DNA of 64,000 nt from Candidatus Latescibacterota bacterium (GTDB taxonomy: Bacteria > Latescibacterota > UBA2968 > GCA-2709665): the NCBI GenBank assembly GCA_021295655.1, contig JAGWBX010000013.1:876-64875 (forward strand), in the 5' to 3' direction. The notes under the pieces are model-generated. The model did no database searches. It was not told the DNA's origin and saw only the letters and a list, made by a program, of their open reading frames with translations. Positions 1 through 63,608 of this stretch are shown piece after piece (the stretch's first letter is position 1; the number at the start of each line of letters is the position of its first letter). The position numbers and the translations under genes were made by a program.

Positions 1-1205
1 ATCTCGTCCAGCGAGACTTCCCTTCCGAGCAGTCCCGACTCCAGAATCGCGTAGCTCAGGGCCAGGTCGATCGTCCCCTCATCCCCCGACATCCGTACCG
101 GCGAACCGTCGCGGATCGCCAGCAGCCAGTCCAGGTTCTCCAGCGCGAATGGATCGGTGATCCCGCCGGGCATCGCTTCGTCCCGGTCCCGTTCCGCGGC
201 CTCTCGCCGGAACCGGCGCAGGACGTCTTCCCCGTTTCCGTCCCCCGCGAAGATCTTCCCGTCCGACAACGCCCCCGTACTGCCGAATACGTTGGTTCCA
301 CCCGGAACCCCGATCTGCGTGCCCCTGGCGCTGCGGGCCACCGCGATGTGCCCGATCGCTCCGTTCGCAAGCCGGAAATTGGAAAAGAACGCGTCGTCCA
401 CCTGGTTCTCAACCTCGTCTGCAACCCCGCGGTCGTCGTCCGACATCAGCACCCGGACCGGCTCCAGAATACGCCACAGGGCCTGCACCGAATGCACCGG
501 TCCGCAGATCGTACGAACGCCATTGAAGAGATGTACGCCCAGATCGATCGACACCCCGCCCCCGGCGCCCAGCTTTGACTGCCTCCACGGCGTGCGTGCG
601 GCAACCAGATCAGGCCGGTGGGACCGGAACCCGATCACGCCGCGGTAGACCATCTGCACGTCACCGATCAATCCCTCCGTGACGGCCCATCGGTTCGCAC
701 GCACCGCGGGCGTGAAATTCACGTTTTCCGCAACGCTCAACACCGTGTTCGTCTCCGAAGCCACCTCACACATCTGCTGGGCGGCCCTGACCGAAATCGC
801 CATCGGCTTTTCGACCGTCACGTGCATGCCGGCCCGCATGGCATCGATGGCGATGGTGTGATGCGTATCGTGTCCCGTCAGAATGCATACCGCGTCGACC
901 GGTCCGCGTACCAGCATCTCGCGATAATCCGTGTAAACCGCCGTTTCCTGACCGGGATGCAGGTCGCTGATGTACGCGTGCGGCGCGTTCAGCGGGTCAC
1001 CCGGGGCCTCCACCGGCGCCGGTCTGGGACCCGGGCCTTCGCCACGCGTTCGAAAGCGGAGGGCGTCCTCACGTTTCCTTGCGCACAGCGCCGTCACCCG
1101 GAAGAGATCCCCGAACCCGGCTTCCTGCAACGTTCGGAACCCGCGCAGGTGTGCGTTCAGGATTCGCCCGCAGCCGATCACGCCAATCCGGATTACAGAA
1201 GACAT
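1..1205 (-). CDS. Gfo/Idh/MocA family oxidoreductase (3' end runs off the window)
   Basis: Not in the ORF track. Hand translation from ATG 1205 gives MSSVIRIGVIGCGRIL...HVTVEKPMA...DLALSYAILES, with a Rossmann GxGxI motif and EKP motif; GGAG RBS upstream. Confidence 0.85.
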   Translation of the reverse strand, partial: MSSVIRIGVIGCGRILNAHLRGFRTLQEAGFGDLFRVTALCARKREDALRFRTRGEGPGPRPAPVEAPGDPLNAPHAYISDLHPGQETAVYTDYREMLVRGPVDAVCILTGHDTHHTIAIDAMRAGMHVTVEKPMAISVRAAQQMCEVASETNTVLSVAENVNFTPAVRANRWAVTEGLIGDVQMVYRGVIGFRSHRPDLVAARTPWRQSKLGAGGGVSIDLGVHLFNGVRTICGPVHSVQALWRILEPVRVLMSDDDRGVADEVENQVDDAFFSNFRLANGAIGHIAVARSARGTQIGVPGGTNVFGSTGALSDGKIFAGDGNGEDVLRRFRREAAERDRDEAMPGGITDPFALENLDWLLAIRDGSPVRMSGDEGTIDLALSYAILESGLLGREVSLDE

Positions 1206-1311
1206 CAGGATCTCCATTATACGATTGAAGTGGCAGACCTCACGCCAAACGCGGATCCGAGGGCATCATCCGCGTGCCGACGCACCGGTCACATGGCCCG
1301 GCAAGTCGCCA

Positions 1312-2292
1312 TCAGATCCAGCCCGGCGTACCGATGGTATCCGCGATCGGGATCGCCCGTTCAAGTTCCGCATCCGTCAACGATGGCATTTCTGCAGTGC
1401 CGGCGTTTTCATCCACCTGCCGGCGGTTTTTGGCGCCGGCAATCACGCAGGACACACCCGGGTGATCCAGCACGAAACGCAGGGCCGCCTGTGCCATGGT
1501 TCGCGTCCGGTTCTGCAGAAACAGCAACTGCGGCAGCCGCTTCAGTCCATCGACCGTCTCGGGTTTGTTGAACCGTTCGTACCGCACGTCGTTTTCCGGG
1601 ATCGTCCGTGCTTCCGCTCCGAAATACTTGCCCGTCAGTTGCCCCTTTGCCAGCGGCACGCGAATCAACGTACCGATATTCTCCGCCTTCGCCCAGTGCA
1701 GAAACCCATCCGCCGTGCGTTCGAGCAGATTATAACCCACCTGCAGCATATGGACAGACCCGAACGCCCGGAGCCTCTCCACGGCTTGCCTGTCATTGGT
1801 GGAAATGCCGTACCACCGCACCTTGCCGGCCTGCCTGAGCTTCGCCAGCGTGTCCATTATCGTTGGCATCGCCCACTCGTAAGGCACGGCGTGCAACTGG
1901 TAGACGTCTATGTGGTCCATCGCCAACCGTTTGAGGCTGAGCTCACACGCCTCTGTAATTCGACGCCGCACCGCGGACACGTCCCGTGATTCAGGATCGA
2001 TGCCCGCGTTCGGCTGGACCTTCGTGGCCACAATCCATTTGTCTTTCCGTCCTCGCAGCGCTTTGCCCGTGAGAACCTCGCTGTGCCCGTCGCCATAGCT
2101 TTCAGCGGAATCGATCAGATTGATGCCGAGTTCCTCGCAGCGATGAATCAGCGCAATCGACTCGGAGTCCCCGGTTCCGGTCCATCCGAACCGCGTACCG
2201 TCGGCCTGCCGCTGCATCCCCGAAATGGGAAACGCGCCGAGGCCGATTTCCGAGACCGTCAGTCCGGTCTGTCCCAGCGTACGGTATTTCAT
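1312..2292 (-). CDS. aldo/keto reductase
   Basis: MKYRTLGQTGLTVSEIGLG, DSAESYG, ATK, IDVYQLH motifs; start trimmed to ATG 2292, which overlaps the upstream stop (ATGA). Confidence 0.92.
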   Translation of the reverse strand: MKYRTLGQTGLTVSEIGLGAFPISGMQRQADGTRFGWTGTGDSESIALIHRCEELGINLIDSAESYGDGHSEVLTGKALRGRKDKWIVATKVQPNAGIDPESRDVSAVRRRITEACELSLKRLAMDHIDVYQLHAVPYEWAMPTIMDTLAKLRQAGKVRWYGISTNDRQAVERLRAFGSVHMLQVGYNLLERTADGFLHWAKAENIGTLIRVPLAKGQLTGKYFGAEARTIPENDVRYERFNKPETVDGLKRLPQLLFLQNRTRTMAQAALRFVLDHPGVSCVIAGAKNRRQVDENAGTAEMPSLTDAELERAIPIADTIGTPGWI

Positions 2293-3851
2293 CGCACATC
2301 CTCCTCCAGGACCGCCCTGGTTTCGACTCCCGGCGGGAGGGAAACCTCCTGCCACGCCGCTCCCGGCCGCCGCCACGAGACGGCCTCCTCCGAGTCGCCA
2401 CCGTTGCAGATCCGCACGTTTCCAGTTGACGGGCCGGGCGGGACGACCAGCGAGACCACCCGTTCGGGCAGACCGTACTCGCCTCCAGACCTGCGGAATT
2501 CCACCGCGGGCATCAACGCGCCCAGGCGTTCCGCGGCGCCAAGCAACAGGGGCCCGTAACACCCGGTCACGGCTCCCGAACCCCAGTTTCGACCGTGGCC
2601 CGCCGCCACGGAGCAGACCGCCCCGCCCATGTCCGCGTGCTCCCTTCCACCCCTCAACACACGTCGCGCCACTTTCAGCTTCCGCGCCGCCTGCTTCAAT
2701 GCCCGCGATGCAAACGTCACGTCGCCGGTTATCTGGTAGGCAAGCGTCAACGCAGCCGTACACGGCTCGCGCGTCGGCGCGACGTGGTCCATGCCATCAG
2801 TCTGCACGCCCCAGTGCAGCATATCCGCCCGCTTCCCCACGCCGGGAAAGACCATCCGTGGAACCTCGGGCGCCATCAGCACGAGTTCGCCGGGTTCCTC
2901 GTCCGAAAGCCGCCGGACCATTTCCCGGATCCGGCCGTCCAGCGTATCGTCGCCAAAGGCGCAGCGGTAGAAGGACACGGCTGCGGCGCCGGGATCGCAA
3001 TAGGGGTCGTGAAGCATGCCGACGAGAGGCTCGACAATCCGAAATCCCGCGTCGCGAAATACCTTCTCGCCGGACAGCAGAAACAGATCGCCCAGCGCGT
3101 GGACGGCGCCTGAGGCAAGCAGCACCTCCACGCCCCTTGCCGGGCCGTCCGGCAGATGGTGGCTTGCGGCGCTCATCCGACGCTGCGATTCCGTATACTC
3201 GCATTCGCTCAGAGGCCGTCCGTCCGGCCCCCACATCACGGGTAGTTCCCCGTCAGCCGCGGCCACGATCATCTCCGCGCGGCGCCTTCCGTACCGCAAC
3301 GCCCAGTCCAGGTACCGATCCTGTTTCAGCACGCGGTAAGCCGCCAGGGCAATGTGAATGAACCGGAAGTGCTCCGCCAGTTCCACCGCGTGCTCCGGAT
3401 CCCGCCCCACGGTCCGTGTACCGATGTGGTATCCGAAGAACCGGTTCCGGTCCCAGTCGAACCACGCCGGAATCCCCTTCTCCCAGTTCCCGATGTGTTC
3501 GGCCGCATCCGCAAGCAGTCTCGCACCGACCCGGTCCTCCGGAAACAGACCCAGATAGCGCGGGAGAAAGAGCAGGAACGGCTCGGTGCCATGATGCGCC
3601 TCCGCCTCCGGCTCGTAGCCGTGCAGACATTCGCGCCGGACCCAACCCGCAAGCTGATCCCGGAGATACTCGAAATGCTCCACGACCGCCCGATCGCCCG
3701 TTGCAAGAAAGTGCGGGAACCAGGCCAGAGCGTAGTTGGCTTCGTCCTCGCCGCCGCCGTGTCTGCCCGGCGGATCCATGCGCCGGCTCTGCGCCAACCA
3801 GGCGTCCATCTCCTTCCGGAGAGCGGCATAGTATCGAAAACAGGCCTGCAT
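2289..3851 (-). CDS. hypothetical protein, probable (alpha/alpha) toroid glycosidase/epimerase-like fold
   Basis: 520-aa ORF tightly coupled between mgtE and the AKR; repeated helical motifs such as 'LAAYRVLKQDRYLDWA'. Fold is inference. Confidence 0.65.
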   Translation of the reverse strand: MQACFRYYAALRKEMDAWLAQSRRMDPPGRHGGGEDEANYALAWFPHFLATGDRAVVEHFEYLRDQLAGWVRRECLHGYEPEAEAHHGTEPFLLFLPRYLGLFPEDRVGARLLADAAEHIGNWEKGIPAWFDWDRNRFFGYHIGTRTVGRDPEHAVELAEHFRFIHIALAAYRVLKQDRYLDWALRYGRRRAEMIVAAADGELPVMWGPDGRPLSECEYTESQRRMSAASHHLPDGPARGVEVLLASGAVHALGDLFLLSGEKVFRDAGFRIVEPLVGMLHDPYCDPGAAAVSFYRCAFGDDTLDGRIREMVRRLSDEEPGELVLMAPEVPRMVFPGVGKRADMLHWGVQTDGMDHVAPTREPCTAALTLAYQITGDVTFASRALKQAARKLKVARRVLRGGREHADMGGAVCSVAAGHGRNWGSGAVTGCYGPLLLGAAERLGALMPAVEFRRSGGEYGLPERVVSLVVPPGPSTGNVRICNGGDSEEAVSWRRPGAAWQEVSLPPGVETRAVLEEDVR

Positions 3852-3858
3852 ATGCGGT

Positions 3859-5250
3859 CTACAAGAGTGTCTGCAGGAGCAGCGTCGCCAACCCCAGGTA
3901 GATCAGGATGCCGGCTACGTCGTTTGCCGTCGTGATAAACGGACCTGAAGCGACGGCCGGGTCGATCCCGATTCGATCGAAGACAATGGGTGTAATCACA
4001 CCGAGCAAGACGGAGAATCCGATGACCAGAAACATCGCCGCGCCAACGCAGATCCCGACAAGCGCCTGCCCGAACCATAGCCAGGCGACCGCACTCGCGG
4101 CCAGCCCGCACGCCAGCCCGATCAACGCGCCCGCGCCAACCTCCCGGAAGACCATTTTGAACATCAGACCCGAAGAAAGGCGGCCCGTTACCAGGCTCCT
4201 GACGGTCACCGTTGAAGCCTGCAGACCGCTGTTTCCTCCGGTTGCCATGATCACCGGAATGAACGACGCCAGGGTAATGGCCCGTTCGAGCGTCACTTCA
4301 AACCGGTGAATGACCAGGCCGGCCAGGAAACTCCCCAGCAGGCACATCAGGAGCCATGGCAGTCGGGTGAACGCCACACGCACCACCGAAGGCCGCTCGA
4401 TTTCGACGTCGCTGGTGCCCGCCATCTTGTAGATGTCTTCTGTCGCTTCCTCAATGATCACATCCATCACGTCGTCGACGGTAATCTGACCGATGACGCG
4501 CCCGCCGCGGTCCACCACGGGCATGGCCACGAGATCGTACCTCGCAAAGAACCGAGCAATGTCCTCCTGGTCGGTCTCAGGCGTCACGCTGATCACGTCC
4601 GTATCCATCAACCGGCCCATCGCGGCGGCGGGCGGCGCGGTGACCAGCAGATGCAGCGGCACAACGCCCTGCAACTTTCCTTCGGCATTCACCACGTACA
4701 AATTCAGGATCTCCGCCGACGCGGCTTCCCGACGCAACGTTTCGATCACTTCGAGGGCCGTGGACGAGACGTCAGCAAGGACCAGCCGCGGCGTCATCAA
4801 GCCGCCCCCCGAGTCCTCGTCGTGGGCCATCAAAGCCTGAACTTCCCGAGCCTCCTCCGACGCCATCAAACCCAGGACCTCTCCCGCGTCCTCCTCCTCC
4901 AGATCGGACAGCACGTCGGCCGCGTCATCCGGCGCCATCTCCTCAACCAGCCCGGACAGGGTCTCCGGTTTCAGGTCTTCGGCGATGGCGCGGGTGGTGA
5001 AGACGTCCGATTCGGCCAACACCTCAACCCCCAGGCCGTCCTGAAGCAGACCGAACACGATTTCCCGCGTACCGTCGTCCAGCCTGCGGATGAGGTCTGC
5101 CACGTCAGCCGCACGCTGCGCGTTCAATACGCGGGCAAGGGCTTTCCGGTCGTCAAGCGCGAGGAGTTCGGTTGTGAGTTCCAACAGCGCATCGATACGC
5201 GCCGCTGTCCCCCCGCCCGATGATTCGAATGTTCCGTAATCGTCCGCCAC
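3859..5250 (-). CDS. mgtE: magnesium transporter MgtE
   Basis: N-terminal MgtE domain, CBS pair, RLPWL, GGNSGLQ and DPAVASGPFITTAND motifs. Confidence 0.95.
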   Translation of the reverse strand: MADDYGTFESSGGGTAARIDALLELTTELLALDDRKALARVLNAQRAADVADLIRRLDDGTREIVFGLLQDGLGVEVLAESDVFTTRAIAEDLKPETLSGLVEEMAPDDAADVLSDLEEEDAGEVLGLMASEEAREVQALMAHDEDSGGGLMTPRLVLADVSSTALEVIETLRREAASAEILNLYVVNAEGKLQGVVPLHLLVTAPPAAAMGRLMDTDVISVTPETDQEDIARFFARYDLVAMPVVDRGGRVIGQITVDDVMDVIIEEATEDIYKMAGTSDVEIERPSVVRVAFTRLPWLLMCLLGSFLAGLVIHRFEVTLERAITLASFIPVIMATGGNSGLQASTVTVRSLVTGRLSSGLMFKMVFREVGAGALIGLACGLAASAVAWLWFGQALVGICVGAAMFLVIGFSVLLGVITPIVFDRIGIDPAVASGPFITTANDVAGILIYLGLATLLLQTLL

Positions 5251-54082: not shown

Positions 54083-55504
54083 TCACATCCGCCCAAACTC
54101 CCAGATCACACACGCCACGGCGAATGCGATGTATACGAGCGATGCAATCGACATCATACCGGTGCATAGCCATCCGGGGCGGGCGGCCGCGGGCAGATGA
54201 CGATGATTGATGTAGAGCGTCAGCGGCGTATAGAGCGCCATTGCAAATCCGCCAATATACGCAGCGTTAAACAGGAACCCCAATTCACTCACGCCACGGG
54301 CCTCCATCACATAGGTGATCACACACCCTGCCACAATCCATGTCGCCGCAACGACCAGATACCACCAGCTCAGATCCCGCTTTCGCGCCACGCTGAAATT
54401 GGTGTAGATGATATCCGCGATCGATCGCGAAACCCCGTCGACCAGAGCGAGCTGCGTACTGAACAACGTAGCCAGCCCCACAACCAGAAAGACGTACCTG
54501 CCCGTCTCGCCCCAGACCGTTGCCAGAACCGCTGCTTCGTCCCAGATCAGCGTGCCCCTCGCAGGTACGATTCCATTGGGATGCAATACCGCAAGCGCAC
54601 CGAAGATGAAGAGCAGAATGGTTACGGAATTCAGGGCCCAGAAAAACAGCATCTGATCTTTCTTCACATAGTTGAACCAGCTCTTGAAACGACCGATATT
54701 TTCTTCTGTCTCCTCAAACCGGAATCCGGTCGAGGGCATCGCCTCGGTCCGACCTCGAAGCGGATTCCGCATCTGGGGCAGATGCGCGCCCATCCCGACG
54801 TGCTTGTCGCGCAGGTAGAACGTATAGAAGAGATTGGCCGTACCTCCGGCGCCGGCGAATACGAGCGCGATGAACATCGCCTTGACACTCATTCCCGGAT
54901 CGATGTAACCGATATTGGCAATACCCCTCCCCAGCGATGCCCATGTCTGGGCCGATCCCACCGCGTACGCGACCGCGATCAGGCCGACAGTCACCACCAC
55001 AACGAGCAGTTCGATACTCCGCTCGACGGACTGGTATATCAACTTCGGACCGAAGAGAATCAGCGCCACGCCCGCGAAGGTGACGATCGTCCAGAACGTA
55101 TCCGAACCCCAGCCATGCGGCCCCGCAAGCAGCGCCTTCAAGGCCAGTCCGGATGCCCGTCCCCATCCAGGTGCAATCCAGCTGAAAATCGTCAACAGAA
55201 CAAATATGGGAGCGAATCCTCGCCACACCCGGCTGTATCCGGTATATACCGTTTCACCTGTGGCAACCGTCCAACGTCCCACTTCGAAGTTGATCCAGAG
55301 TTGCAGGAATATGCCGAGGCAGGCCGCCCACACCATGCCGGCTCCGTATTCGGCGACGATGCGCGGCCAGATAACGATCTCGCCCGCACCGATGGAAAGC
55401 CCCACCAGGATTGCGCCCGGACCGGCCAGTTTCCAGAAGGACGTCTTCCGCTCCGGCATCTTTCTGACTTCGAAGTTTTTCAGCGGCTCAAAAAACCTCG
55501 CCAT
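54083..55504 (-). CDS. Nramp/APC-fold membrane transporter
   Basis: GPGAILVGLSIGAGE..IWP, GRWTVATGE and LFSTQL..DGVSR motifs; about 11 TMs. Confidence 0.85.
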   Translation of the reverse strand: MARFFEPLKNFEVRKMPERKTSFWKLAGPGAILVGLSIGAGEIVIWPRIVAEYGAGMVWAACLGIFLQLWINFEVGRWTVATGETVYTGYSRVWRGFAPIFVLLTIFSWIAPGWGRASGLALKALLAGPHGWGSDTFWTIVTFAGVALILFGPKLIYQSVERSIELLVVVVTVGLIAVAYAVGSAQTWASLGRGIANIGYIDPGMSVKAMFIALVFAGAGGTANLFYTFYLRDKHVGMGAHLPQMRNPLRGRTEAMPSTGFRFEETEENIGRFKSWFNYVKKDQMLFFWALNSVTILLFIFGALAVLHPNGIVPARGTLIWDEAAVLATVWGETGRYVFLVVGLATLFSTQLALVDGVSRSIADIIYTNFSVARKRDLSWWYLVVAATWIVAGCVITYVMEARGVSELGFLFNAAYIGGFAMALYTPLTLYINHRHLPAAARPGWLCTGMMSIASLVYIAFAVACVIWEFGRM

Positions 55505-55854: not shown

Positions 55855-56373
55855 CTAGCGCACCCGCGTCCATTTGTCCACAAATACGTCGGGAAAAGTC
55901 GCGACCATCTGATCGCCGCGGAACTCCTCGCTGTACCCCCGCTCGTGCGTGATGCGAATCAGCCCGTCTTCCAGCGTAATCTTACCCTTTTCGACCTTTG
56001 CCTTATGGTAGATCGTGATCGGCGCGTCGAATGACGAGCGGTAGCCCTGCCGGATGAGCAGATACCTGGAACGCGTAATAGCGGAGGTCGAGATCTCGTA
56101 CTTGCTTGCGGCAAAATCGAACGTCCTGGGTTTTTCGCCGACCGCGTTCACCAGCATATTCAGCGTCACGTGGGCCTTCCTTGAATCGATCGGCTGCCAC
56201 GAGAACACTCCCGAAACCTCGGGTTTTCGAAGCACCGTGCCGTCGGGCAGGGTTCGTGACTCCAGTTCCCACTTGCCCGCAAGCTGCTCCTGCATATGCG
56301 CCAGGCGGTCACTACAGGCAAGTGTCATCCCCGCGCACACTGTCAAAACTGCGAACATCAATCGGCGATTCAT
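55855..56373 (-). CDS. lipocalin-like lipoprotein
   Basis: MNRRLMFAVL...TLAC lipobox; 'LAGKWELES' start motif and 'DKWTRV' end motif. Confidence 0.7.
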   Translation of the reverse strand: MNRRLMFAVLTVCAGMTLACSDRLAHMQEQLAGKWELESRTLPDGTVLRKPEVSGVFSWQPIDSRKAHVTLNMLVNAVGEKPRTFDFAASKYEISTSAITRSRYLLIRQGYRSSFDAPITIYHKAKVEKGKITLEDGLIRITHERGYSEEFRGDQMVATFPDVFVDKWTRVR

Positions 56374-56438
56374 CCCTGTCTCCATAAAGGACCATTGAGC
56401 CTGCGTCGATGATGATGCCACGCTGCGACGCGCCGAAC

Positions 56439-56467
56439 AGTATATTTCCCGGAATTCACGCTGTCAA
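56439..56467 (-). promoter_or_regulatory. sigma-70 promoter for the lipoprotein gene
   Basis: TTGACA-N17-TATACT on the minus strand. Confidence 0.7.
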
Positions 56468-56468
56468 G

Positions 56469-56504
56469 AAAAAAAGCCCCGATCCTGTCTTGCTCTCGAG
56501 GCTC
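56469..56504 (-). terminator. hup terminator
   Basis: AGCCTCGA...TCGGGGCT stem followed by a T7 run on the minus strand. Confidence 0.55.
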
Positions 56505-56530
56505 TATTTGCAGAATTGGCGATGGGTCGG

Positions 56531-56806
56531 CTAGTTGACAGCGTCCTTAAGCGCCTTGCCAGCTTTGAAACGAACGGTCTTACCCGCGGAAATCTGAATT
56601 GTCTCACCCGTCTGAGGATTTCGACCGGTACGTGCGGCTCTGGTTCCGACCGAAAACGTCCCGAAACCGGAAATGGCGACGCGATCACCGCTCTTGAGCG
56701 AATCCCTGATTTCGTTCAGAACGACCCGCAGTGCGTCTTCCGCATTCCTTTTTGACAGACCGGCCTGATTTGCAATGGCGTCGACTAGATCGGTCCTGTT
56801 CGACAT
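56531..56806 (-). CDS. hup: DNA-binding protein HU
   Basis: GFGTF, RTGRNPQTGE and FKAGKALK motifs. Confidence 0.96.
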   Translation of the reverse strand: MSNRTDLVDAIANQAGLSKRNAEDALRVVLNEIRDSLKSGDRVAISGFGTFSVGTRAARTGRNPQTGETIQISAGKTVRFKAGKALKDAVN

Positions 56807-56838
56807 GGTAATTCACCCCCTTTCAGGAATTTGCCCTG

Positions 56839-56868
56839 AATATAGGCCCGATTGTGGGAATTTGTCAA
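56839..56868 (-). promoter_or_regulatory. hup promoter
   Basis: TTGACA-N18-TATATT on the minus strand. Confidence 0.6.
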
Positions 56869-57007
56869 GTGCGCCGATACCGATTGACGCAAAAAGACGG
56901 TTCTATCGTCGATTTATTCGTCAAAACGCCGCGACGAAACGGGCTGCGGCAGGATCCCCGTCCAGGATACCCGCATCGACAACGCGGCCGGCCGGCACCG
57001 GAAACCG

Positions 57008-57043
57008 AAAAAAAACGGGCGGAGACCATTTTCCGTCTCCGCC
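57008..57043 (-). terminator. intrinsic terminator after the sigma factor gene
   Basis: GGCGGAGAC-N8-GTCTCCGCC followed by a T8 run on the minus strand. Confidence 0.75.
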
Positions 57044-57118
57044 ACGAGAACTGCGATATCGGAGTCGATACGATCCAGTAGCCGGCAAGAGAAACATGCG
57101 GCCCCGGCAGTCGACCCT

Positions 57119-57970
57119 TTACGCCGACTCCATCAGCGGTTCGAGTTGCAGCCGTCGACGCGGATGCCGCAGTCGCCGGAGGGCCTTTTCCTTGATCTGC
57201 CGCACCCTTTCCCGCGTAAGGCTGAACCTGGTGCCGATCTCTTCCAGCGTCATCGCTTCTTCGTCGCCTAACCCGAAATAAAGCCTTAACACTTCCGCTT
57301 CCCGCGCGTCAAGGGTTTCAAGGACCATCTTCACCTGGTCCTTGACCGACTCGTCGACCACTTCGAGGTCCGGCGCTTTCTGAGAACTGTCCGGGAGAAT
57401 ATGCAGCAGGCTGTGGTCGTCGTCGTCTTTGAAAGACGCATCGAGCGACCAGACGTCGCGCGCCCGGAGGAGCGTATCCTGTACCATGTCCACGGAAACG
57501 CCAAGTTTCTCCGCAATCGTCTCGGGATCGGGGTCGGCCTCTTCCGTCTGTCGAATCTCCCGCGAAACCTTGGCGATGTTGTGCAACAGATCGATACGGT
57601 TGATGGGCAGCCTCACCACGCGTGAGTCCTGCGCAAGGCTCTGATGAATGGCCTGGCGTATCCACCAGACCGCGTAGGATATGAATTTGAATCCCCGCGT
57701 CCCGTCAAATCGTTCGGCGGCCGTCATCAGACCCATGTTCCCCGCGCTGATGAGATCGGCCAACGGCACCCCATGGTTCTGGTATTCCCTGGCAACGCTG
57801 ACCACGAAACGGAGATTCGAAGCGACCAGCCTGTCTCTGGCCTTCTGGTCTCCCTTTCGGATCCTGTGCGCGAGCGCGATCTCTGTCTCGGCGGTAAGCG
57901 GCTCCGAAGAAGCAATATCCCTGAGATAGAGATCAAGAGACTCGCTGTCCTGAATCATTATTCCAGCCAC
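57119..57970 (-). CDS. RNA polymerase sigma-70 factor, RpoD/SigA family lacking region 1.1
   Basis: SLDLYLRDI, NLRFVVSVA, RGFKFISYAVWWIRQAI and TLEEIG..LTRERVRQI motifs; GGAGGA RBS and GTG start. Confidence 0.95.
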   Translation of the reverse strand: MAGIMIQDSESLDLYLRDIASSEPLTAETEIALAHRIRKGDQKARDRLVASNLRFVVSVAREYQNHGVPLADLISAGNMGLMTAAERFDGTRGFKFISYAVWWIRQAIHQSLAQDSRVVRLPINRIDLLHNIAKVSREIRQTEEADPDPETIAEKLGVSVDMVQDTLLRARDVWSLDASFKDDDDHSLLHILPDSSQKAPDLEVVDESVKDQVKMVLETLDAREAEVLRLYFGLGDEEAMTLEEIGTRFSLTRERVRQIKEKALRRLRHPRRRLQLEPLMESA

Positions 57971-58007
57971 GTGTCCATCCTCCGGAGAATCAGTGTGCGA
58001 TACGCGT

Positions 58008-58556
58008 CTAAGTCGCCGAAACGTGCTCCCTGCACGCCTCCGGCAGAGCCCCGTGCAGGCGCATCTGTCGCAGCAGTAGTCGATTCATCTGCACTGCAGT
58101 TCGGGACTCGAGAAAAGTTCCGGTGATATCCTCGTGGAAAAGCCGGCACAAATAGCCGAGAAGCGGCAGGTATCTTATGTCGCCCTCCGCGGGCACGGCC
58201 ACGAGGCAAATGAGTCGAACGGGCTCAGGATACAGATCCGAGTGAAAGTCCACACCGTGATTTGAAATGCCCAACGCCATTCCGAGGTGCGCGGCAGAAC
58301 CACAACGTGCATGGGGAAACGCGATTCCGTTACCGACTGCGGTACTCTCGAGGTCTTCCCTGTCCAGAACCGATTGAAGGAATCGCAGACTGTCCGTCAC
58401 GTAGCCCGAGCCGTGCAAACGGTTCACGAGCGCCTTGATTGCGCCCATCCGATCCCGGGATTCCAGGTTCGGGACCATCGTCGTGGGGTGGAACCCGACC
58501 ACACCGCTCAGGTCCGTTTCCCATTCACTGCTATAATGGAACTTCGATAGCGCCAT
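58008..58556 (-). CDS. PTS IIA (PtsN/fructose-mannitol type) domain protein
   Basis: 'VLDRE..ESTAVGNGIAFPHAR' with the phospho-His; start uncertain (58556 vs TTG 58736). Confidence 0.8.
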   Translation of the reverse strand: MALSKFHYSSEWETDLSGVVGFHPTTMVPNLESRDRMGAIKALVNRLHGSGYVTDSLRFLQSVLDREDLESTAVGNGIAFPHARCGSAAHLGMALGISNHGVDFHSDLYPEPVRLICLVAVPAEGDIRYLPLLGYLCRLFHEDITGTFLESRTAVQMNRLLLRQMRLHGALPEACREHVSAT

Positions 58557-58786
58557 GTCTGCAACCGGGATATCCCAGGTCCGGCTCAAACCGGATATGC
58601 GTTCGGTATCAAGTGTGCCTGTGTCCCCGAACCCAGTCGTACTTGAAATGCAATTATTGCAGCAAGCCCGGCGTGAATGCACGCTGCCAACGCGACATCC
58701 TGCAGCTGAATCACCCCGGTAAACAACGCCATCCAATGGTTTTCGCTCGTATCAGCAAATCCGATGGAATCGTCGCCCTATTTATA

Positions 58787-58802
58787 AGCAACTTTAATGC
58801 CA
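58787..58802 (-). promoter_or_regulatory. sigma-54 (-24/-12) promoter
   Basis: Minus strand TGGCATTAAAGTTGCT = GG-N10-GC, one mismatch from TGGCAC-N5-TTGCW. Confidence 0.8.
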
Positions 58803-58901
58803 GTTTTATGAGATAATGTACAGGTGCTTATTAAAAATAAACTTACGCCCGGCGATTTCAATCGCCGGGCGCGAAATATTCAATCCCGTGTCCCTACTGA
58901 C

Positions 58902-58945
58902 GCAATATTTGCACTCGAATCCCGGCAGATTGCGCAAAAATTGCA
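58902..58945. promoter_or_regulatory. tandem enhancer (UAS) candidates for an NtrC-family activator
   Basis: GCAATATTTGCA (58902) and GCAAAAATTGCA (58934), 32 bp apart and about 100-145 bp upstream of the sigma-54 site, with an AT-rich tract between. Confidence 0.6.
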
Positions 58946-58994
58946 GCGCGAGACCCGTCGAGGCTCCGAATGCGCCATTTGTGCCGACTTTACC

Positions 58995-60353
58995 TTATCC
59001 CAGGCTGTATTTCTTGATCTTGTAGTGTAACGCGCGCACGCTGATACCCAGAATTCGGGCAGCTTCCTTCCGGTTGGAGGTCACGTGGGCCAGCGTATTC
59101 TCGATTAACAGGCGTTCCATGTCCTCTATGGAGGAATTCGATGGTATAACAAGATCCTTCTGAACCGGTGTGGTCGCGCGAATGTCCGTGGGCAACCGTT
59201 CAGGGCCGATCCGGGTTTCCGGACACGTCACCACGATACGCTCCACCGCATTCTTCAGTTCCCGGACGTTTCCAGGCCAGGCGTAATTCAGTATCATCCG
59301 CATCGCATCGGGGGTGAATCGTTTCCTGGATTTTTGATGAATCTTGCAGAGTTCATCCACAAACGTCTTCACAAGCAATGGAATATCTTCCTTTCGGTCC
59401 TTCAATTGCGGGAGCCGAATGGGAACGACGTTGATCCTGTAAAACAGATCTTCGCGGAATCGACCCTCCCTGACTTCCAGATCCAGGTTTCTGTTCGTGG
59501 CAAAGATGATCCGCGCGTCGGCCTTTCTCATGTCGTTGCTGCCAACCGGTGTGTATACCTTCTCTTCCAGGACGCGCAGAAGGTCCACCTGATTCGCCAG
59601 TGGAATCTCACCGACTTCATCGAGGAATAACGTGCCGCCCTCAGCGGCAGCGAAACGTCCCGGCTTGTCTGCGTGGGCGCCCGTAAAAGCACCCTTGACG
59701 TGGCCGAACAACTCTCGCTCGAACAACGTTTCCGGAACGGCTCCGCAATTCACCGCCACAAGCGGTCCCTTGCGGCGGTTGCTGTGTTGGTGCACGGCTC
59801 GGGCGACAAGCTCCTTACCCGTGCCGGTATCGCCCATCACAAGTACCGGAACATCGGTTATCGCCGCCTGCGCCAGCGTGTCGCAGACCTGCTGCATGGA
59901 GGCGCTCCGGTTCACAATCTGACCGAAGGCCTCCGTCGAACCCAGCCAGGCCCGGAGTTCCTTGTTCTCCGCAACCAGTGCCTGATGTTCCAGAAGGTGT
60001 TGCAGGGACAGATGCAGCCGCTTGAGATCCACCGGCTTCGCGAGGTAGTCATACGCGCCCAGTCGCATGGCATCAACCGCCGTGGAGACCTCTCCAAAGG
60101 CCGTGATGATGATGACGCCGGTATCGGGGCTGGTTTTCTTAAGCCGCTTCAACAGGGCAATTCCGTCGATTCCCGGCATCTTGAGATCCAGTATAGCCGC
60201 GTGGTAGACCCGCGCCTTCAGGTGTTCGGCCGCTTCTGTGCCGTCGTAGGCGACATCGACCGAATACCCGACGTTTGTCAACGACTCCTTGAGTCCCTCA
60301 CATATGTGGTACTCGTCGTCTGCCACAAAGATCCTGATGTCTCTCGTTTTCAT
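58995..60353 (-). CDS. sigma-54-dependent response regulator (NtrC/AtoC family)
   Basis: Receiver (DDE, DLKMP, KP), GDTGTGKE, GAFTGA, LFLDE, WPGNVREL and Fis-type HTH. Confidence 0.96.
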   Translation of the reverse strand: MKTRDIRIFVADDEYHICEGLKESLTNVGYSVDVAYDGTEAAEHLKARVYHAAILDLKMPGIDGIALLKRLKKTSPDTGVIIITAFGEVSTAVDAMRLGAYDYLAKPVDLKRLHLSLQHLLEHQALVAENKELRAWLGSTEAFGQIVNRSASMQQVCDTLAQAAITDVPVLVMGDTGTGKELVARAVHQHSNRRKGPLVAVNCGAVPETLFERELFGHVKGAFTGAHADKPGRFAAAEGGTLFLDEVGEIPLANQVDLLRVLEEKVYTPVGSNDMRKADARIIFATNRNLDLEVREGRFREDLFYRINVVPIRLPQLKDRKEDIPLLVKTFVDELCKIHQKSRKRFTPDAMRMILNYAWPGNVRELKNAVERIVVTCPETRIGPERLPTDIRATTPVQKDLVIPSNSSIEDMERLLIENTLAHVTSNRKEAARILGISVRALHYKIKKYSLG

Positions 60354-60519
60354 CTCACTCCGTCAGCGCGACCGCTGTTTCAGGTCGCCAACGCCTGAAC
60401 CGGCCTGGAATCTGTTCACGGACGTCGGGTGAATGCGCCCTGCGTCGATTCGTGCGTATTCACGATGATCGGTGTACGGCTGCCCGGCGTTCCGGCGCCG
60501 GTACCGATCAGCCGGAAGG

Positions 60520-61593
60520 CTAACCGGGTTGTCCGGCAATTGGCATATGAATCCTGAAAACGGTTCCCTTTCCTGTTTCGCTTTCCACCTCGATGTGGCC
60601 CCGATGCTGGTAGACAATCTGCTGGGCGATGGAGAGTCCGAGTCCGGTTCCTTCATCGCGAGTTGTATAGTAATACTCGAAAATCCGATCGATCTCCTCA
60701 TCCGGAATCCCGCAGCCGGTATCGGAAATTGTCAGGCAGACATGGTTACCGTTGGAATCCATAAACGTCCGCGCGCGCAGTTGCCCACCGGTTTCCATTG
60801 CCTGGAATGCATTTACCGTTATGTTCAGGACGGCCTGGCCCAGCTGGCTATCGTCTCCTTCCACCGCGGGAAGACCGTCGCGAAGATCCAGGTTCAGTTG
60901 GACGCCCCGTTCCCGAGCTTCCGGAGAGACCAGATCGAACACATGCTGAATCACGTCGTTCAGGCTGATCCGTTGCAGGTCCAGCCTCGGCGTTCTGGAA
61001 AACCTCAAGAAATTGTGCACGATCCGGTCAAGCCGCTTCATCTCCATCCGGGCGATATTGAGCCTGCGGAATGCGCGGTTCCGCATCCCCGTATCCACTG
61101 TCCGAAGGTCGTCTTCCAGGAGTTGTAACTGAATGTCCACGGCACCCAGCGGGTTCCGGACCTCGTGCGCGACGGATGCGGCCAGGCGACCGAGCGCGCT
61201 CATCTTGGCTACCTGGAACATCTCCCACTCCATCTTCTTCAGGGCCGAAACGTCCTGGACAACCAGAACCAGTCCCTGTTTCAGATCCGCTTTCAAATAC
61301 GATGTGGTGGCGCCCAATCGACGCATCCCGACCTCTTCCTGCTGCAAATTCAAATCCCTCGGTTCCGGATACAGACGACCTCGAAACCCCGCCTCCAGAA
61401 TCTTCAGCAGTTCAGGGCTTCCGACGAACAGCTCGTCGGCTCCGCGCCCCACCACCTCCTGCCCGGCCAGTCCCAGCAGGCGAATCGATGCCCCGTTGGC
61501 CAGCACGGCAAAGCGATGCCGGTCGAACGCAATCACGCCTTCGTTCAGGCCCTCCAGCAGCGCGGCGCTGTATTCCGAGGCGGATCTCGGCAT
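60520..61593 (-). CDS. cytoplasmic PAS-domain histidine kinase (NtrB-like)
   Basis: PAS domain, AHEVRNPL, N box, DTGCGI and GTGLGL; no TM segments. Confidence 0.93.
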   Translation of the reverse strand: MPRSASEYSAALLEGLNEGVIAFDRHRFAVLANGASIRLLGLAGQEVVGRGADELFVGSPELLKILEAGFRGRLYPEPRDLNLQQEEVGMRRLGATTSYLKADLKQGLVLVVQDVSALKKMEWEMFQVAKMSALGRLAASVAHEVRNPLGAVDIQLQLLEDDLRTVDTGMRNRAFRRLNIARMEMKRLDRIVHNFLRFSRTPRLDLQRISLNDVIQHVFDLVSPEARERGVQLNLDLRDGLPAVEGDDSQLGQAVLNITVNAFQAMETGGQLRARTFMDSNGNHVCLTISDTGCGIPDEEIDRIFEYYYTTRDEGTGLGLSIAQQIVYQHRGHIEVESETGKGTVFRIHMPIAGQPG

Positions 61594-62040
61594 GACGGCT
61601 CCCCCGATGACCTTCGTTTCCAGTTAACCTATGCAGTCCATCCCCAAAAGGCAAGCCCGATTATCCATCCGAACCTCGCAACTGCCACAACGGTCTTTTC
61701 GGCATTGCCGACGGCGTTAACCTGACCAATCCCCGACTCAGTACATACAACCTTTCATTCGAGAATAACCTGCATCGTCCGTGGCTTCTTAACGGCAGGG
61801 CGGGTTCTCGAAGGGAGGCCGGAGTCCGCCCCCGTGGTCTGACACCGGCTGACAAGATGGAGCGACGGATCCTGCGCGGCACCAATATGCGGTCGGTCTC
61901 GCAGTCCGTGAGGCAACGACCGCGGCCGCCGTCGGGTCACGTTGTTATTCGGATTGACGTCAGCACCCCCGCTTCGGGTGCGGATCCTGCGGAACAACCG
62001 GGAGACATTTTTCTATCTTCCGGAAAAATAAAGAAAAAAC

Positions 62041-62069
62041 TTGACAACCCTTATCTCTTGGTTTACTTT
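62041..62069 (+). promoter_or_regulatory. rho promoter
   Basis: TTGACA-N17-TACTTT with an A-rich UP tract. Confidence 0.7.
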
Positions 62070-62300
62070 TTCAGTGTAATTCTTCCGCTTCCTTCCCACT
62101 TTTTTACCGCATATATACAGACGGCTCCTCGCTTCCTGCATCCTTGGCTTCACGAACTTCCTCGATCCGCCTCCTTTTTCCAGATTCGTCCGATCCGCTT
62201 TTCCGCCGTTTGCCTCCGGCTGTCCGGGTCCGGCCGTAATCCATGAGAGATAAGCCGCCTGTATCCCACACGAGGCAACGTCAACATATCGGATCCGCCA

Positions 62301-63608
62301 ATGGCAACCGGAACGACCAGAGAAATCCCGAAAGCGCCGCCCCGGGCAGGTGGCGTGGATATACTTGAACTGCAGAAAATGACCATTTCGGAACTCGCAC
62401 GGTTGGCCCAGACCCTTGAGATCCAGAGCTACGGCAGCCTGAGAAAACAGGAGCTGATTTTCGCCATCATTCAGGCACAGACTGCGAAAAACGGGCTCAT
62501 TCTGGCCAAGGGCGTTCTGGAAATTCTGGAAGACGGCTTCGGATTCCTGCGTTCGCCCAATTATAATTACCTCCCGGGCCCGGACGATATCTACGTTTCG
62601 CATTCGCAGATCAAACGCTTCAACCTCCGCACGGGAGACACCATTTCCGGACAGATTCGCCCGCCAAAGAACGACGAGAAGTATTTCGCGCTCATCCGGG
62701 TTGAGGCCGTAAACTTCGAAGATCCGGAACTGGCCAAACAGAAAACCCTCTTCGACAACCTCACCCCGTTGCACCCCCGGCAGCGCATGAAGCTGGAATA
62801 CGATTCGAACGACTTCTCAACTCGAATCATGAATCTGCTGACACCCATCGGCAAGGGCCAGCGCGGCATGATCGTCGCCCCTCCGTTTACCGGCAAGACC
62901 ATGCTGCTTCAGAAGATAGCCAACGCAATCACCGAGAACCACCCCGAAATCAATCTGATTGTGCTCCTGATAGACGAACGTCCTGAGGAAGTGACCGACA
63001 TGCTGAGGTCGGTCAACGGAGAAGTCATCAGTTCCACCTTCGACGAACCTCCAACCCGGCATGTACAGGTGGCGGACATGGTCATCGAAAAGGCCAAGCG
63101 TCTGGTGGAACATCAACAGGACGTCGTCATCCTCCTGGACAGCATCACTCGCCTCGCCAGGGCCTATAACAACGTCGTCCCTCATAGCGGCCGCATCCTT
63201 ACCGGAGGGCTCGACTCCAGCGCCATGCAATGGCCCAAACGATTCTTCGGCGCCGCGCGAAACATCGAAGAAGGCGGCAGTCTGACCATCCTGTCCACTG
63301 CCCTCGTTGAAACGGGAAGCCGTATGGACGAGGTTATTTTCGAAGAATTCAAGGGTACCGGCAATATGGAATTGAAACTGGACCGGCGCCTGAGCAACCG
63401 ACGCATCTATCCCGCTATCGACGTTACCCTGTCCGGAACGCGGAAAGAGGAACTGCTCCTGGACGAAAAAGAACTCAACCGGGTCTGGATCCTGCGCCGG
63501 CTGCTCAACCAGATGCCTGCCCTGGATGCCATGGAGTTCCTCAAAGAGAAAATGGCAGGTACCAAAAACAACGAGGCGTTTCTGGATTCAATGAACCGGC
63601 AGTTATAG
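62301..63608 (+). CDS. rho: transcription termination factor Rho
   Basis: [30 protein letters not shown] and FKGTGNME motifs. Confidence 0.98.

Follow-up and report, generated by a model that had tools for sequence, protein, structure and literature searches.

In a 64,000-nucleotide stretch of DNA from a Candidatus Latescibacterota bacterium (NCBI GenBank assembly GCA_021295655.1, contig JAGWBX010000013.1, positions 876 to 64,875 of the forward strand; the whole stretch is hereafter called the window), we identified a conserved four-gene regulatory module of this phylum, in which a dedicated two-component system likely drives a cascade from sigma-54 to a sigma-70-family factor. The four genes encode a sensor histidine kinase, an enhancer-binding activator, an EIIA protein of the phosphotransferase system (PTS) and a sigma factor. 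A preliminary description of this DNA had proposed a self-contained sigma cascade at the locus. Its core, i.e. a kinase and activator acting through enhancers and a sigma-54 promoter on EIIA and a RpoD-like sigma factor, received strong comparative support, but the module cannot be called self-contained, as it needs rpoN and probably EI and HPr, which are encoded elsewhere.

The preliminary description had also placed the kinase gene and an activator gene with a GAFTGA motif upstream of an AT-rich intergenic region, which was said to hold two related palindromes about three helical turns apart and a near-consensus -24/-12 site, followed by a PTS-IIA gene, a gap of 37 bp, a sigma-70 gene and a terminator, and had noted a third related palindrome. 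We found the domains, the motif and all of the sites in place, with the gene order, gap and terminator as described (Table 1). Furthermore, it had expected rpoN in the genome, conservation of GG-N10-GC in orthologous loci, synteny across related metagenome-assembled genomes (MAGs), and a sigma factor that is neither the only RpoD of the genome nor preceded by a sigma-70-type promoter; the results given below agree with each of these expectations.

The predicted sigma-54 promoter and its palindromic sites

The sequence TGGCATTAAAGTTGCT was the sole match to TGGCAY-N5-TTGCW in the window, where 0.08 were expected and 7 of 100 shuffled sequences held at least one. Its GG and GC doublets are ten bases apart, as in the TGGCAC-N5-TTGCW pattern of sigma-54-dependent promoters. 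Because a lone motif match is near chance frequency, the evidence for this promoter rests on its conservation across related loci. These were taken from Candidatus Latescibacterota MAGs, a few of which are labelled Gemmatimonadota, and formed two sets: a same-order set of 30 loci from 30 genomes, the window's own included, for which 1.5 kb was fetched upstream, and a wider set of 55 Latescibacterota loci with 6-kb flanks (L039-L093). We distinguished the main clade (45 loci) from a divergent sister clade (L083-L092), whose module sigma factors are ~55% identical and whose gene order is kept.

The results showed that TGGCAY-N5-TTGCT is present upstream of the EIIA gene in 30/30 same-order loci and in 45/45 main-clade loci. 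When the 45 distinct main-clade promoter segments were compared without gaps, conservation of at least 90% was found at TGGCA and TTGCT only, and the five-base spacer between them took 12 different forms. Two conserved boxes amid variable spacers are a signature of selection on the boxes, not of recent common descent. Sigma-54-like boxes were also present in 9 of the 10 loci of the divergent clade, with a weak one in L083. We placed the predicted transcription start 12 nt past the GC doublet, and all relative positions given here are counted from it.

The palindromes provided stronger evidence than the lone promoter match. The window contains three YGCAA-N3-TTGCR palindromes, compared to 0.35 expected, and none of 100 shuffled sequences reached three. 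Throughout the genome of the window, which is GC-rich, 4.6 Mb in size and 97% complete, we found 11 matches in all, three of them within 300 bp at the module; the other eight were loose and none was paired. Two sites upstream of the promoter and one downstream of it were present in all 45 main-clade loci. The proximal upstream site was positioned at -119 to -134 and the spacing between the two upstream sites was 31-33 bp in 43 of these loci each, and the downstream site was found at +96 to +141 in every one. In 9 of 10 loci of the divergent clade, a single site lay upstream of the promoter (-130 to -144) and two lay downstream of it, and this arrangement was also observed in 3/3 further genomes (L157, L158 and L160).

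The genes of the module and their distribution

Domain searches with Pfam models showed that the activator carries Response_reg (103 bits), Sigma54_activat (229), AAA_lid_14 (90) and HTH_8 (43) domains, all above their cut-offs. This is the architecture of NtrC-family response-regulator activators (group I of the bacterial enhancer-binding proteins), with a receiver, an AAA+ domain and a C-terminal Fis-type helix-turn-helix (HTH). The best-scoring models for the kinase and the activator were AtoS/AtoC, NtrC and ZraS/ZraR. The activator scored below the NCBIfam equivalog cut-offs for AtoC (430 vs. 714), NtrC (404 vs. 559) and ZraR (395 vs. 760), and the kinase was under every equivalog cut-off; its alignment to AtoS covers positions 266-609 only, indicating that the membrane part is absent. 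Because all of these scores are below the equivalog cut-offs, we do not regard the two proteins as orthologs of AtoSC, NtrC or ZraSR. The genome also has an rpoN gene on contig C95, which is not the contig of the module; its product scored 435.5 bits with TIGR02395 (cut-off 277.35).

The module sigma factor matched Sigma70_r1_2, r2, r3 and r4 of Pfam, all above their cut-offs, which places it among the group 1/2 (RpoD/RpoS-like) sigma-70 factors. It was under the equivalog cut-offs for RpoD (280 vs. 555) and RpoS (268 vs. 379 for TIGR02394 and 261 vs. 394 for NF004207). Its gene starts with GTG after GGAGGA, the N-terminus MAGIMIQ is conserved, and its length is exactly 283 amino acids in nearly all main-clade loci. 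It is one of seven RpoD-like paralogs in the genome, of ~275-290 amino acids where the start is clear, and is not the most conserved of them. Identity of the C59 paralog across the order was 99, 93, 92, 88 and 86% in five genomes, and that of the module sigma factor was 100, 89 and 81-83%; thus, the C59 paralog is likelier to be the housekeeping factor. Regions 2.4 and 4.2 of the two proteins are nearly identical. Group 2 sigma factors resemble the primary sigma factor in these regions, and on its sequence the module sigma factor is probably an alternative, group-2-like factor and not the housekeeping group 1 factor. The closest paralog of the module sigma factor (G000:C1:114836-115654; 58% identity) contains one in-frame TGA, which could reflect either a pseudogene or an error of assembly.

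The EIIA gene was found to start at ATG 58556 and not with the listed open reading frame (ORF; 58736-58008), because relatives align from residue 1 at this ATG and, in one of them, the frame stays open for only five codons further upstream. The protein matched PF00359 (PTS_EIIA_2) with 76 bits against a cut-off of 27, and His82 was invariant in 24 sequences from both clades. Its closest solved relatives in a profile search were PtsN proteins, and its predicted structure (pLDDT, the predicted local distance difference test, of 83.5) matched Neisseria IIA-Ntr (entry 2a0j) with a target-normalised TM-score of 0.86. It is not a PtsN equivalog (27.5 bits vs. the TIGR01419 cut-off of 138.7), and its gene is not located by rpoN. 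Elsewhere in the genome, there are two EIIA paralogs, adjacent genes for HPr (101 bits) and EI (586 bits) on contig C68, and HprK on contig C2. Together, contigs C68, C2, C27 and C43 of the genome (G000) hold EI, HPr, HprK and three EIIA-2 genes. No glucose/fructose-type EIIC (PF02378) was found in this 97% complete genome, other EIIC families being outside the search, and the PTS of this genome may be purely regulatory. Fused (Rosetta-stone) forms of EIIA were absent from 722 longer candidates, which is weak evidence. EIIA would most likely feed the PTS phosphorylation state into the module as a further signal, with the sigma factor, the kinase or the activator as its target.

Comparison of the related loci showed that the gene order is conserved. 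The sigma gene was found behind the EIIA gene in 30/30 same-order loci, and the activator gene was within 1.5 kb upstream in 29/30. In the wider set, the activator gene was upstream of EIIA in 55/55 loci, the sigma gene was downstream in 54/55, the 55th being interrupted by the end of its contig, and the kinase gene preceded the activator gene in 52/55, with two misses at contig ends and the third in L065. As an outgroup, we used 25 loci with a generic EIIA gene (L094-L118), none of which had a sigma gene on the same strand behind it. In a phylogenetic tree, the module sigma factors of both clades formed one clade apart from the six other paralogs of the genome (support 95/91), and the module is therefore old and not a recent copy. 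An EIIA ortholog (E <= 1e-40) was found once per genome in 90 of the 168 genomes of the phylum, including 18/21 in family f1, 30/31 in f2, 39/76 in f4 and 2/2 in f9.

The two f9 loci, L154 (positions 400-4930) and L155, which come from another class, differ in layout. A gene for an HTTM-domain protein and a 412-codon ORF without a Pfam hit are located between the activator gene and the sigma-54 promoter, and a gene for an SLT lytic transglycosylase is found between the promoter (L154:3852-3868) and EIIA. Two palindromes are kept beside EIIA, at L154:4764-4776 and 4864-4876.

The gap between the EIIA and sigma genes also varies locally. In three genomes of the window's genus, the stop codon of EIIA is separated from the start of the sigma gene by an insert of ~165 bp with inverted ends, resembling a miniature inverted-repeat transposable element (L039:6550-6753, L043 and L044), and in L045 a 72-nt gap contains a short hairpin that looks like a remnant.

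Table 1. Features of the module in the window, listed from the kinase gene to the terminator.
Feature	Position	Strand	Details
Soluble sensor histidine kinase, 357 aa	60520..61593	-	PAS, HisKA and HATPase_c domains; AtoS/ZraS-like
NtrC/AtoC-type enhancer-binding response regulator, 452 aa	58995..60353	-	Receiver, AAA+ sigma-54 interaction domain with GAFTGA, Fis-type HTH_8
Distal upstream palindrome, TGCAA-N3-TTGCG type	58933..58945	.	Centre ~-163 from predicted start; presumed activator site
Proximal upstream palindrome	58901..58913	.	Centre ~-131, 32 bp from distal palindrome; presumed activator site
GC-rich hairpin, 12 pairs, then T-rich tail	58845..58872	-	Terminator-like hairpin scan
AT-rich tract, hairpin to promoter	58803..58844	-	Sequence
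Sigma-54 promoter TGGCAT-N5-TTGCT (-24/-12), TGGCATTAAAGTTGCT	58787..58802	-	Predicted start near 58776
Leader, ~220 nt, predicted start to EIIA ATG	58557..58776	-	Predicted start position
Downstream palindrome TGCAATAATTGCA in leader	58649..58661	.	Centre ~+121; presumed third activator site
PtsN-like EIIA, 182 aa, PTS_EIIA_2 fold	58008..58556	-	Invariant His82 in A-F-P-H-A-R motif
RpoD/RpoS-like sigma-70-family factor, 283 aa	57119..57970	-	Regions 1.2, 2, 3 and 4; no region 1.1
Intrinsic terminator closing EIIA-sigma operon	57008..57043	-	Stem 57043-57018 and T run

Several other elements were examined in the 438-nt intergenic region between the activator and EIIA genes and in its vicinity. 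The GC-rich hairpin upstream of the promoter is probably the terminator of the kinase-activator operon, which would keep read-through from reaching the sigma-54 promoter. All 13 loci of the window's genus, as well as certain other lineages, have a strong hairpin in this position; the largest sister genus does not. In a scan of 6 kb, the stem and T run of the terminator behind the sigma gene were the second-best terminator-like hit. No Rfam family matched positions 56400-62400 at E <= 1. A structured leader RNA was considered and rejected: the single-sequence fold gave a z of -3.2, but an alignment of 11 sequences of the genus gave a consensus of -5.75 kcal/mol with essentially no covariation. 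Similarly, a sigma-70-like match of 9 of 12 positions at 58861-58834 was discarded, being weak and not conserved across loci; among the related loci compared, no sigma-70-type promoter is conserved between the activator and EIIA genes. An IHF-like motif, WWACAW-N4-TTR, was present at -50 to -52, between the hairpin and the promoter, in 28/55 loci and in 0/13 loci of the window's genus, and no IHF site is claimed for the window. The otherwise unalignable leaders of L049, L054, L058, L062, L075, L084 and L086, the divergent clade included, share a short block at ~+50 to +60, AACC(C)TTGTTTT(T)ACA, a segment of which fits an inverted IHF-like motif that was found at +39 to +63 in 14/55 loci.

Beyond the operon, the window contains a HU-type gene 3' of it (56531-56806, minus strand), which is preceded by a near-consensus sigma-70 promoter, TTGACA-18-TATATT, at 56839-56868 (minus strand; 11 of 12 positions), and this lineage therefore uses canonical -35/-10 boxes. 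Two ORFs of 473 and 188 codons (54083-55504 and 55855-56421, both minus strand) had no Pfam match. DNA sequencing runs covering most of positions 57000-61600 were labelled sponge metagenome or carried coded organism names, and one of them yielded a 7.9-kb contig over 57180-62400 with 67 differences.

Proposed mechanism and alternative explanations

From the observed genes, motifs, conservation and spacing, we infer the following mechanism. The soluble PAS histidine kinase would phosphorylate the adjacent NtrC/AtoC-type activator, which would bind the three 13-bp palindromes (TGCAA-N3-TTGCA) that flank the sigma-54 promoter at ~-163, ~-131 and ~+121. A single predicted transcript from this promoter would carry the EIIA and sigma genes, 37 nt apart, and end at the intrinsic terminator, so that an intracellular signal would decide whether an additional sigma factor is made. 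EIIA, in which the phosphorylatable histidine is kept, would add the state of the PTS as a second input.

Several observations weigh against this mechanism. Counted on both strands, the genome contains 13 copies of the strict promoter motif, only about twofold more than the ~7 expected from base composition, and a single match proves little; whether these matches are genic or intergenic is blurred by the abundant spurious long open frames of a GC-rich genome. The palindromes were assigned to the neighbouring activator solely by adjacency and co-conservation, and the genome encodes ten strong activators (E <= 3e-60), i.e. nine besides that of the module. In f9, other genes separate the activator gene from the promoter, and the two EIIA-proximal palindromes lie ~0.9-1.0 kb from the promoter, beyond the transglycosylase gene (L154 and L155). 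The module is not universal either, since an EIIA ortholog was found in 0/37 genomes of ten families. Finally, one RNA library, available as assembled contigs, from which starts and levels are not readable and low coverage is dropped, gave three small contigs, of which one falls on the HU gene and two on the sigma gene (its 5' and 3' parts). No contig of this library covers the promoter, the leader or the EIIA, activator and kinase genes, which is no proof that these are silent, and DNA carry-over is possible.

The placement of the downstream palindrome allows a different explanation for that site. It is possible, though we consider it doubtful, that the sigma-54 promoter is real and the downstream palindrome acts negatively, as a roadblock or site of autorepression for the activator (perhaps unphosphorylated) or another protein, or that it controls a second promoter near EIIA, much as NtrC controls a second promoter, glnAp1. 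The f9 loci are consistent with this, as their EIIA-proximal palindromes are within 150 nt of the EIIA start despite their distance from the sigma-54 promoter. In the main clade, however, it is the distance to the promoter that is maintained: of the 13 loci of the window's genus, 12 have the site at +120 to +123, while the distance from the predicted start to the ATG ranges from 146 to 230 nt, and in this genus the downstream site therefore tracks the promoter and not the gene start. An alignment of the leaders of the genus showed an invariant palindrome with variable flanks. The distance between the proximal upstream site and the downstream site, which was 227-283 bp across the 45 main-clade loci, also fell into groups of 227-232 bp (17 loci), 239-242 bp (7 loci) and 250-254 bp (16 loci), with single loci at 263, 272 and 283 bp and exceptions at 266 and 267 bp. 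These steps of about one helical turn suggest a face-of-helix relation between the two sites. A Rayleigh test on the 19 distinct distances gave p of ~0.004-0.03, depending on the assumed pitch, which is a hint and no proof, the loci being related. The lack of any conserved sigma-70-like promoter nearby likewise argues against a second promoter near EIIA.

An improbable alternative is that the sigma gene is expressed mainly from its own promoter, of a type missed by our consensus scan, with the sigma-54 promoter serving chiefly EIIA or providing a conditional boost, in which case there would be no strict cascade. In favor of it are the RNA contigs on the sigma gene and not on EIIA, a weak argument given that contigs drop low coverage, the 165-bp insertion that three loci tolerate between the two genes and the presence of seven RpoD-like sigma factors in the genome. 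Against this, the EIIA-sigma pair was unsplit in all 54 loci that reach far enough, and 46 of 53 loci had a gap of 17-48 nt between the two genes (37 nt in the window); the sigma start follows a conserved GGAGG, and no terminator-like element was noted in the gap. Furthermore, a TTGACA/TATAAT-like match within the 300 nt upstream of the sigma start was found in 0/54 loci, compared to 5.4 in shuffled sequences.

It is very improbable that the palindromes are bound by some other regulator, i.e. one of the nine further strong activators or an unrelated dimeric repressor, with the adjacent two-component system controlling other targets, since the activator gene and the three sites occur together in 45/45 main-clade and 9/10 divergent loci, the near absence of the motif elsewhere in the genome (no pair among the eight loose matches) makes a regulator with a larger regulon unlikely, and two sites three helical turns apart at ~-130 and ~-160 form the classical NtrC-type layout.

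Altogether, we favor activation of the EIIA-sigma operon by the adjacent two-component system, with the three palindromes as presumed binding sites of the activator. A more specific form of this mechanism can be envisaged, which we regard as rather unlikely. Because there are always three dimer sites, equal to one hexamer, on both sides of the promoter, and because their main-clade spacing changes in helical-turn steps, the activator hexamer might be templated across the promoter in a loop closed by the sites on its two sides. The PtsN paralog might then serve as a phosphorylation-switched partner of the sigma factor, with the PAS signal governing its synthesis and the state of the PTS its activity, as in a two-input gate.

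Implications and comparison with known systems

The records of related loci included no cultured member, and the regulation of Latescibacterota can thus be read from sequence only. Among the circuits predicted for this phylum, the module is one of the clearest, with a dedicated sensor pair, a two-box promoter and three precisely placed presumed activator sites, and the sigma factor that it yields would reprogramme many genes. If our interpretation is correct, it provides a direct link between a PtsN-type protein and the making of a sigma factor, which bears on the long-standing question of the roles of EIIA-Ntr. The flanking, helically phased sites would also offer a natural system for studying the assembly of activator hexamers on DNA. 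The preliminary description knew of no account of this architecture in the lineage, and our full-text literature search likewise returned none, although most subscription journals were outside its scope and absence is unproven.

In the best-scoring models of its kinase and activator (AtoS/AtoC, NtrC and ZraS/ZraR), the module resembles NtrBC at glnAp2 and AtoSC at atoDAEB of Escherichia coli. In the classical layout of such promoters, dimer sites are arranged in tandem with a distance of about three helical turns, ~110-160 bp upstream of the sigma-54 promoter. The TGCA-rich inverted repeat of the module presumably also resembles the reported AtoC site. Unlike these systems, the module proteins have sub-equivalog scores, the kinase is without a membrane part, an extra conserved site is present downstream of the promoter, and the predicted target is an operon for a sigma factor instead of a metabolic operon.

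With PtsN of the proteobacterial PTS-Ntr, the module EIIA shares the fold and the phosphorylatable histidine. EIIA-Ntr has been reported to affect kinases and the selectivity of sigma factors. Whereas PtsN is tied genetically to sigma-54 through the rpoN operon, as described in the passages of PMC3162934 that deal with this operon, the module EIIA gene is a predicted target of sigma-54 and not a neighbour of rpoN, and it shares a predicted operon with a sigma-70-family gene. In addition, the module EIIA scores far under the PtsN equivalog cut-off, and it has two paralogs in the genome.

In the flagellar sigma-54 to sigma-28 cascades of Vibrio, Pseudomonas and Legionella, a sigma-54 activator controls the synthesis of a sigma-70-family factor. 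The module sigma factor differs from these in being RpoD/RpoS-like (regions 1.2-4, with DNA-recognition regions about identical to those of the presumed housekeeping sigma factor) and not of the FliA type, and no flagellar genes adjoin the module. Activator sites downstream of the start site exist naturally among the ftr sites of Caulobacter. The passages of PMC3930126 on Caulobacter FlbD describe its binding to ftr sites, by which it activates some promoters and represses others.

Sigma factors controlled by sigma-54 are named in a comparative survey, which in its section on this subject gives sigma-S in Borrelia and, as a predicted case, sigma-32 in enterobacteria (PMC3162934). The Hk2-Rrp2-RpoN-RpoS cascade of Borrelia is the nearest described system. 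As in the module, a kinase gene is found beside the gene of an NtrC-type activator, which acts with sigma-54 at a -24/-12 promoter on a gene for a RpoS/RpoD-like sigma factor, according to the relevant passages of PMC1976401. Activation by Rrp2 of Borrelia burgdorferi is described there as independent of an enhancer, with no binding found within 238 bp upstream of rpoS, whereas three conserved palindromes surround the promoter of the Latescibacterota module. Moreover, the module sigma factor is not an ortholog of RpoS (268 bits vs. a cut-off of 379), and its operon adjoins the two-component genes and includes the EIIA gene. If the proposed mechanism is correct, the module is a second, independent cascade from sigma-54 to a RpoS-like factor besides that of Borrelia, here with enhancers. 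Compared to the Borrelia cascade, the new points are that the predicted control is enhancer-dependent, that the presumed activator sites flank the promoter, that the sigma gene appears to be co-transcribed with that of a PtsN-like protein, and that conservation of the arrangement extends over much of an uncultured phylum.

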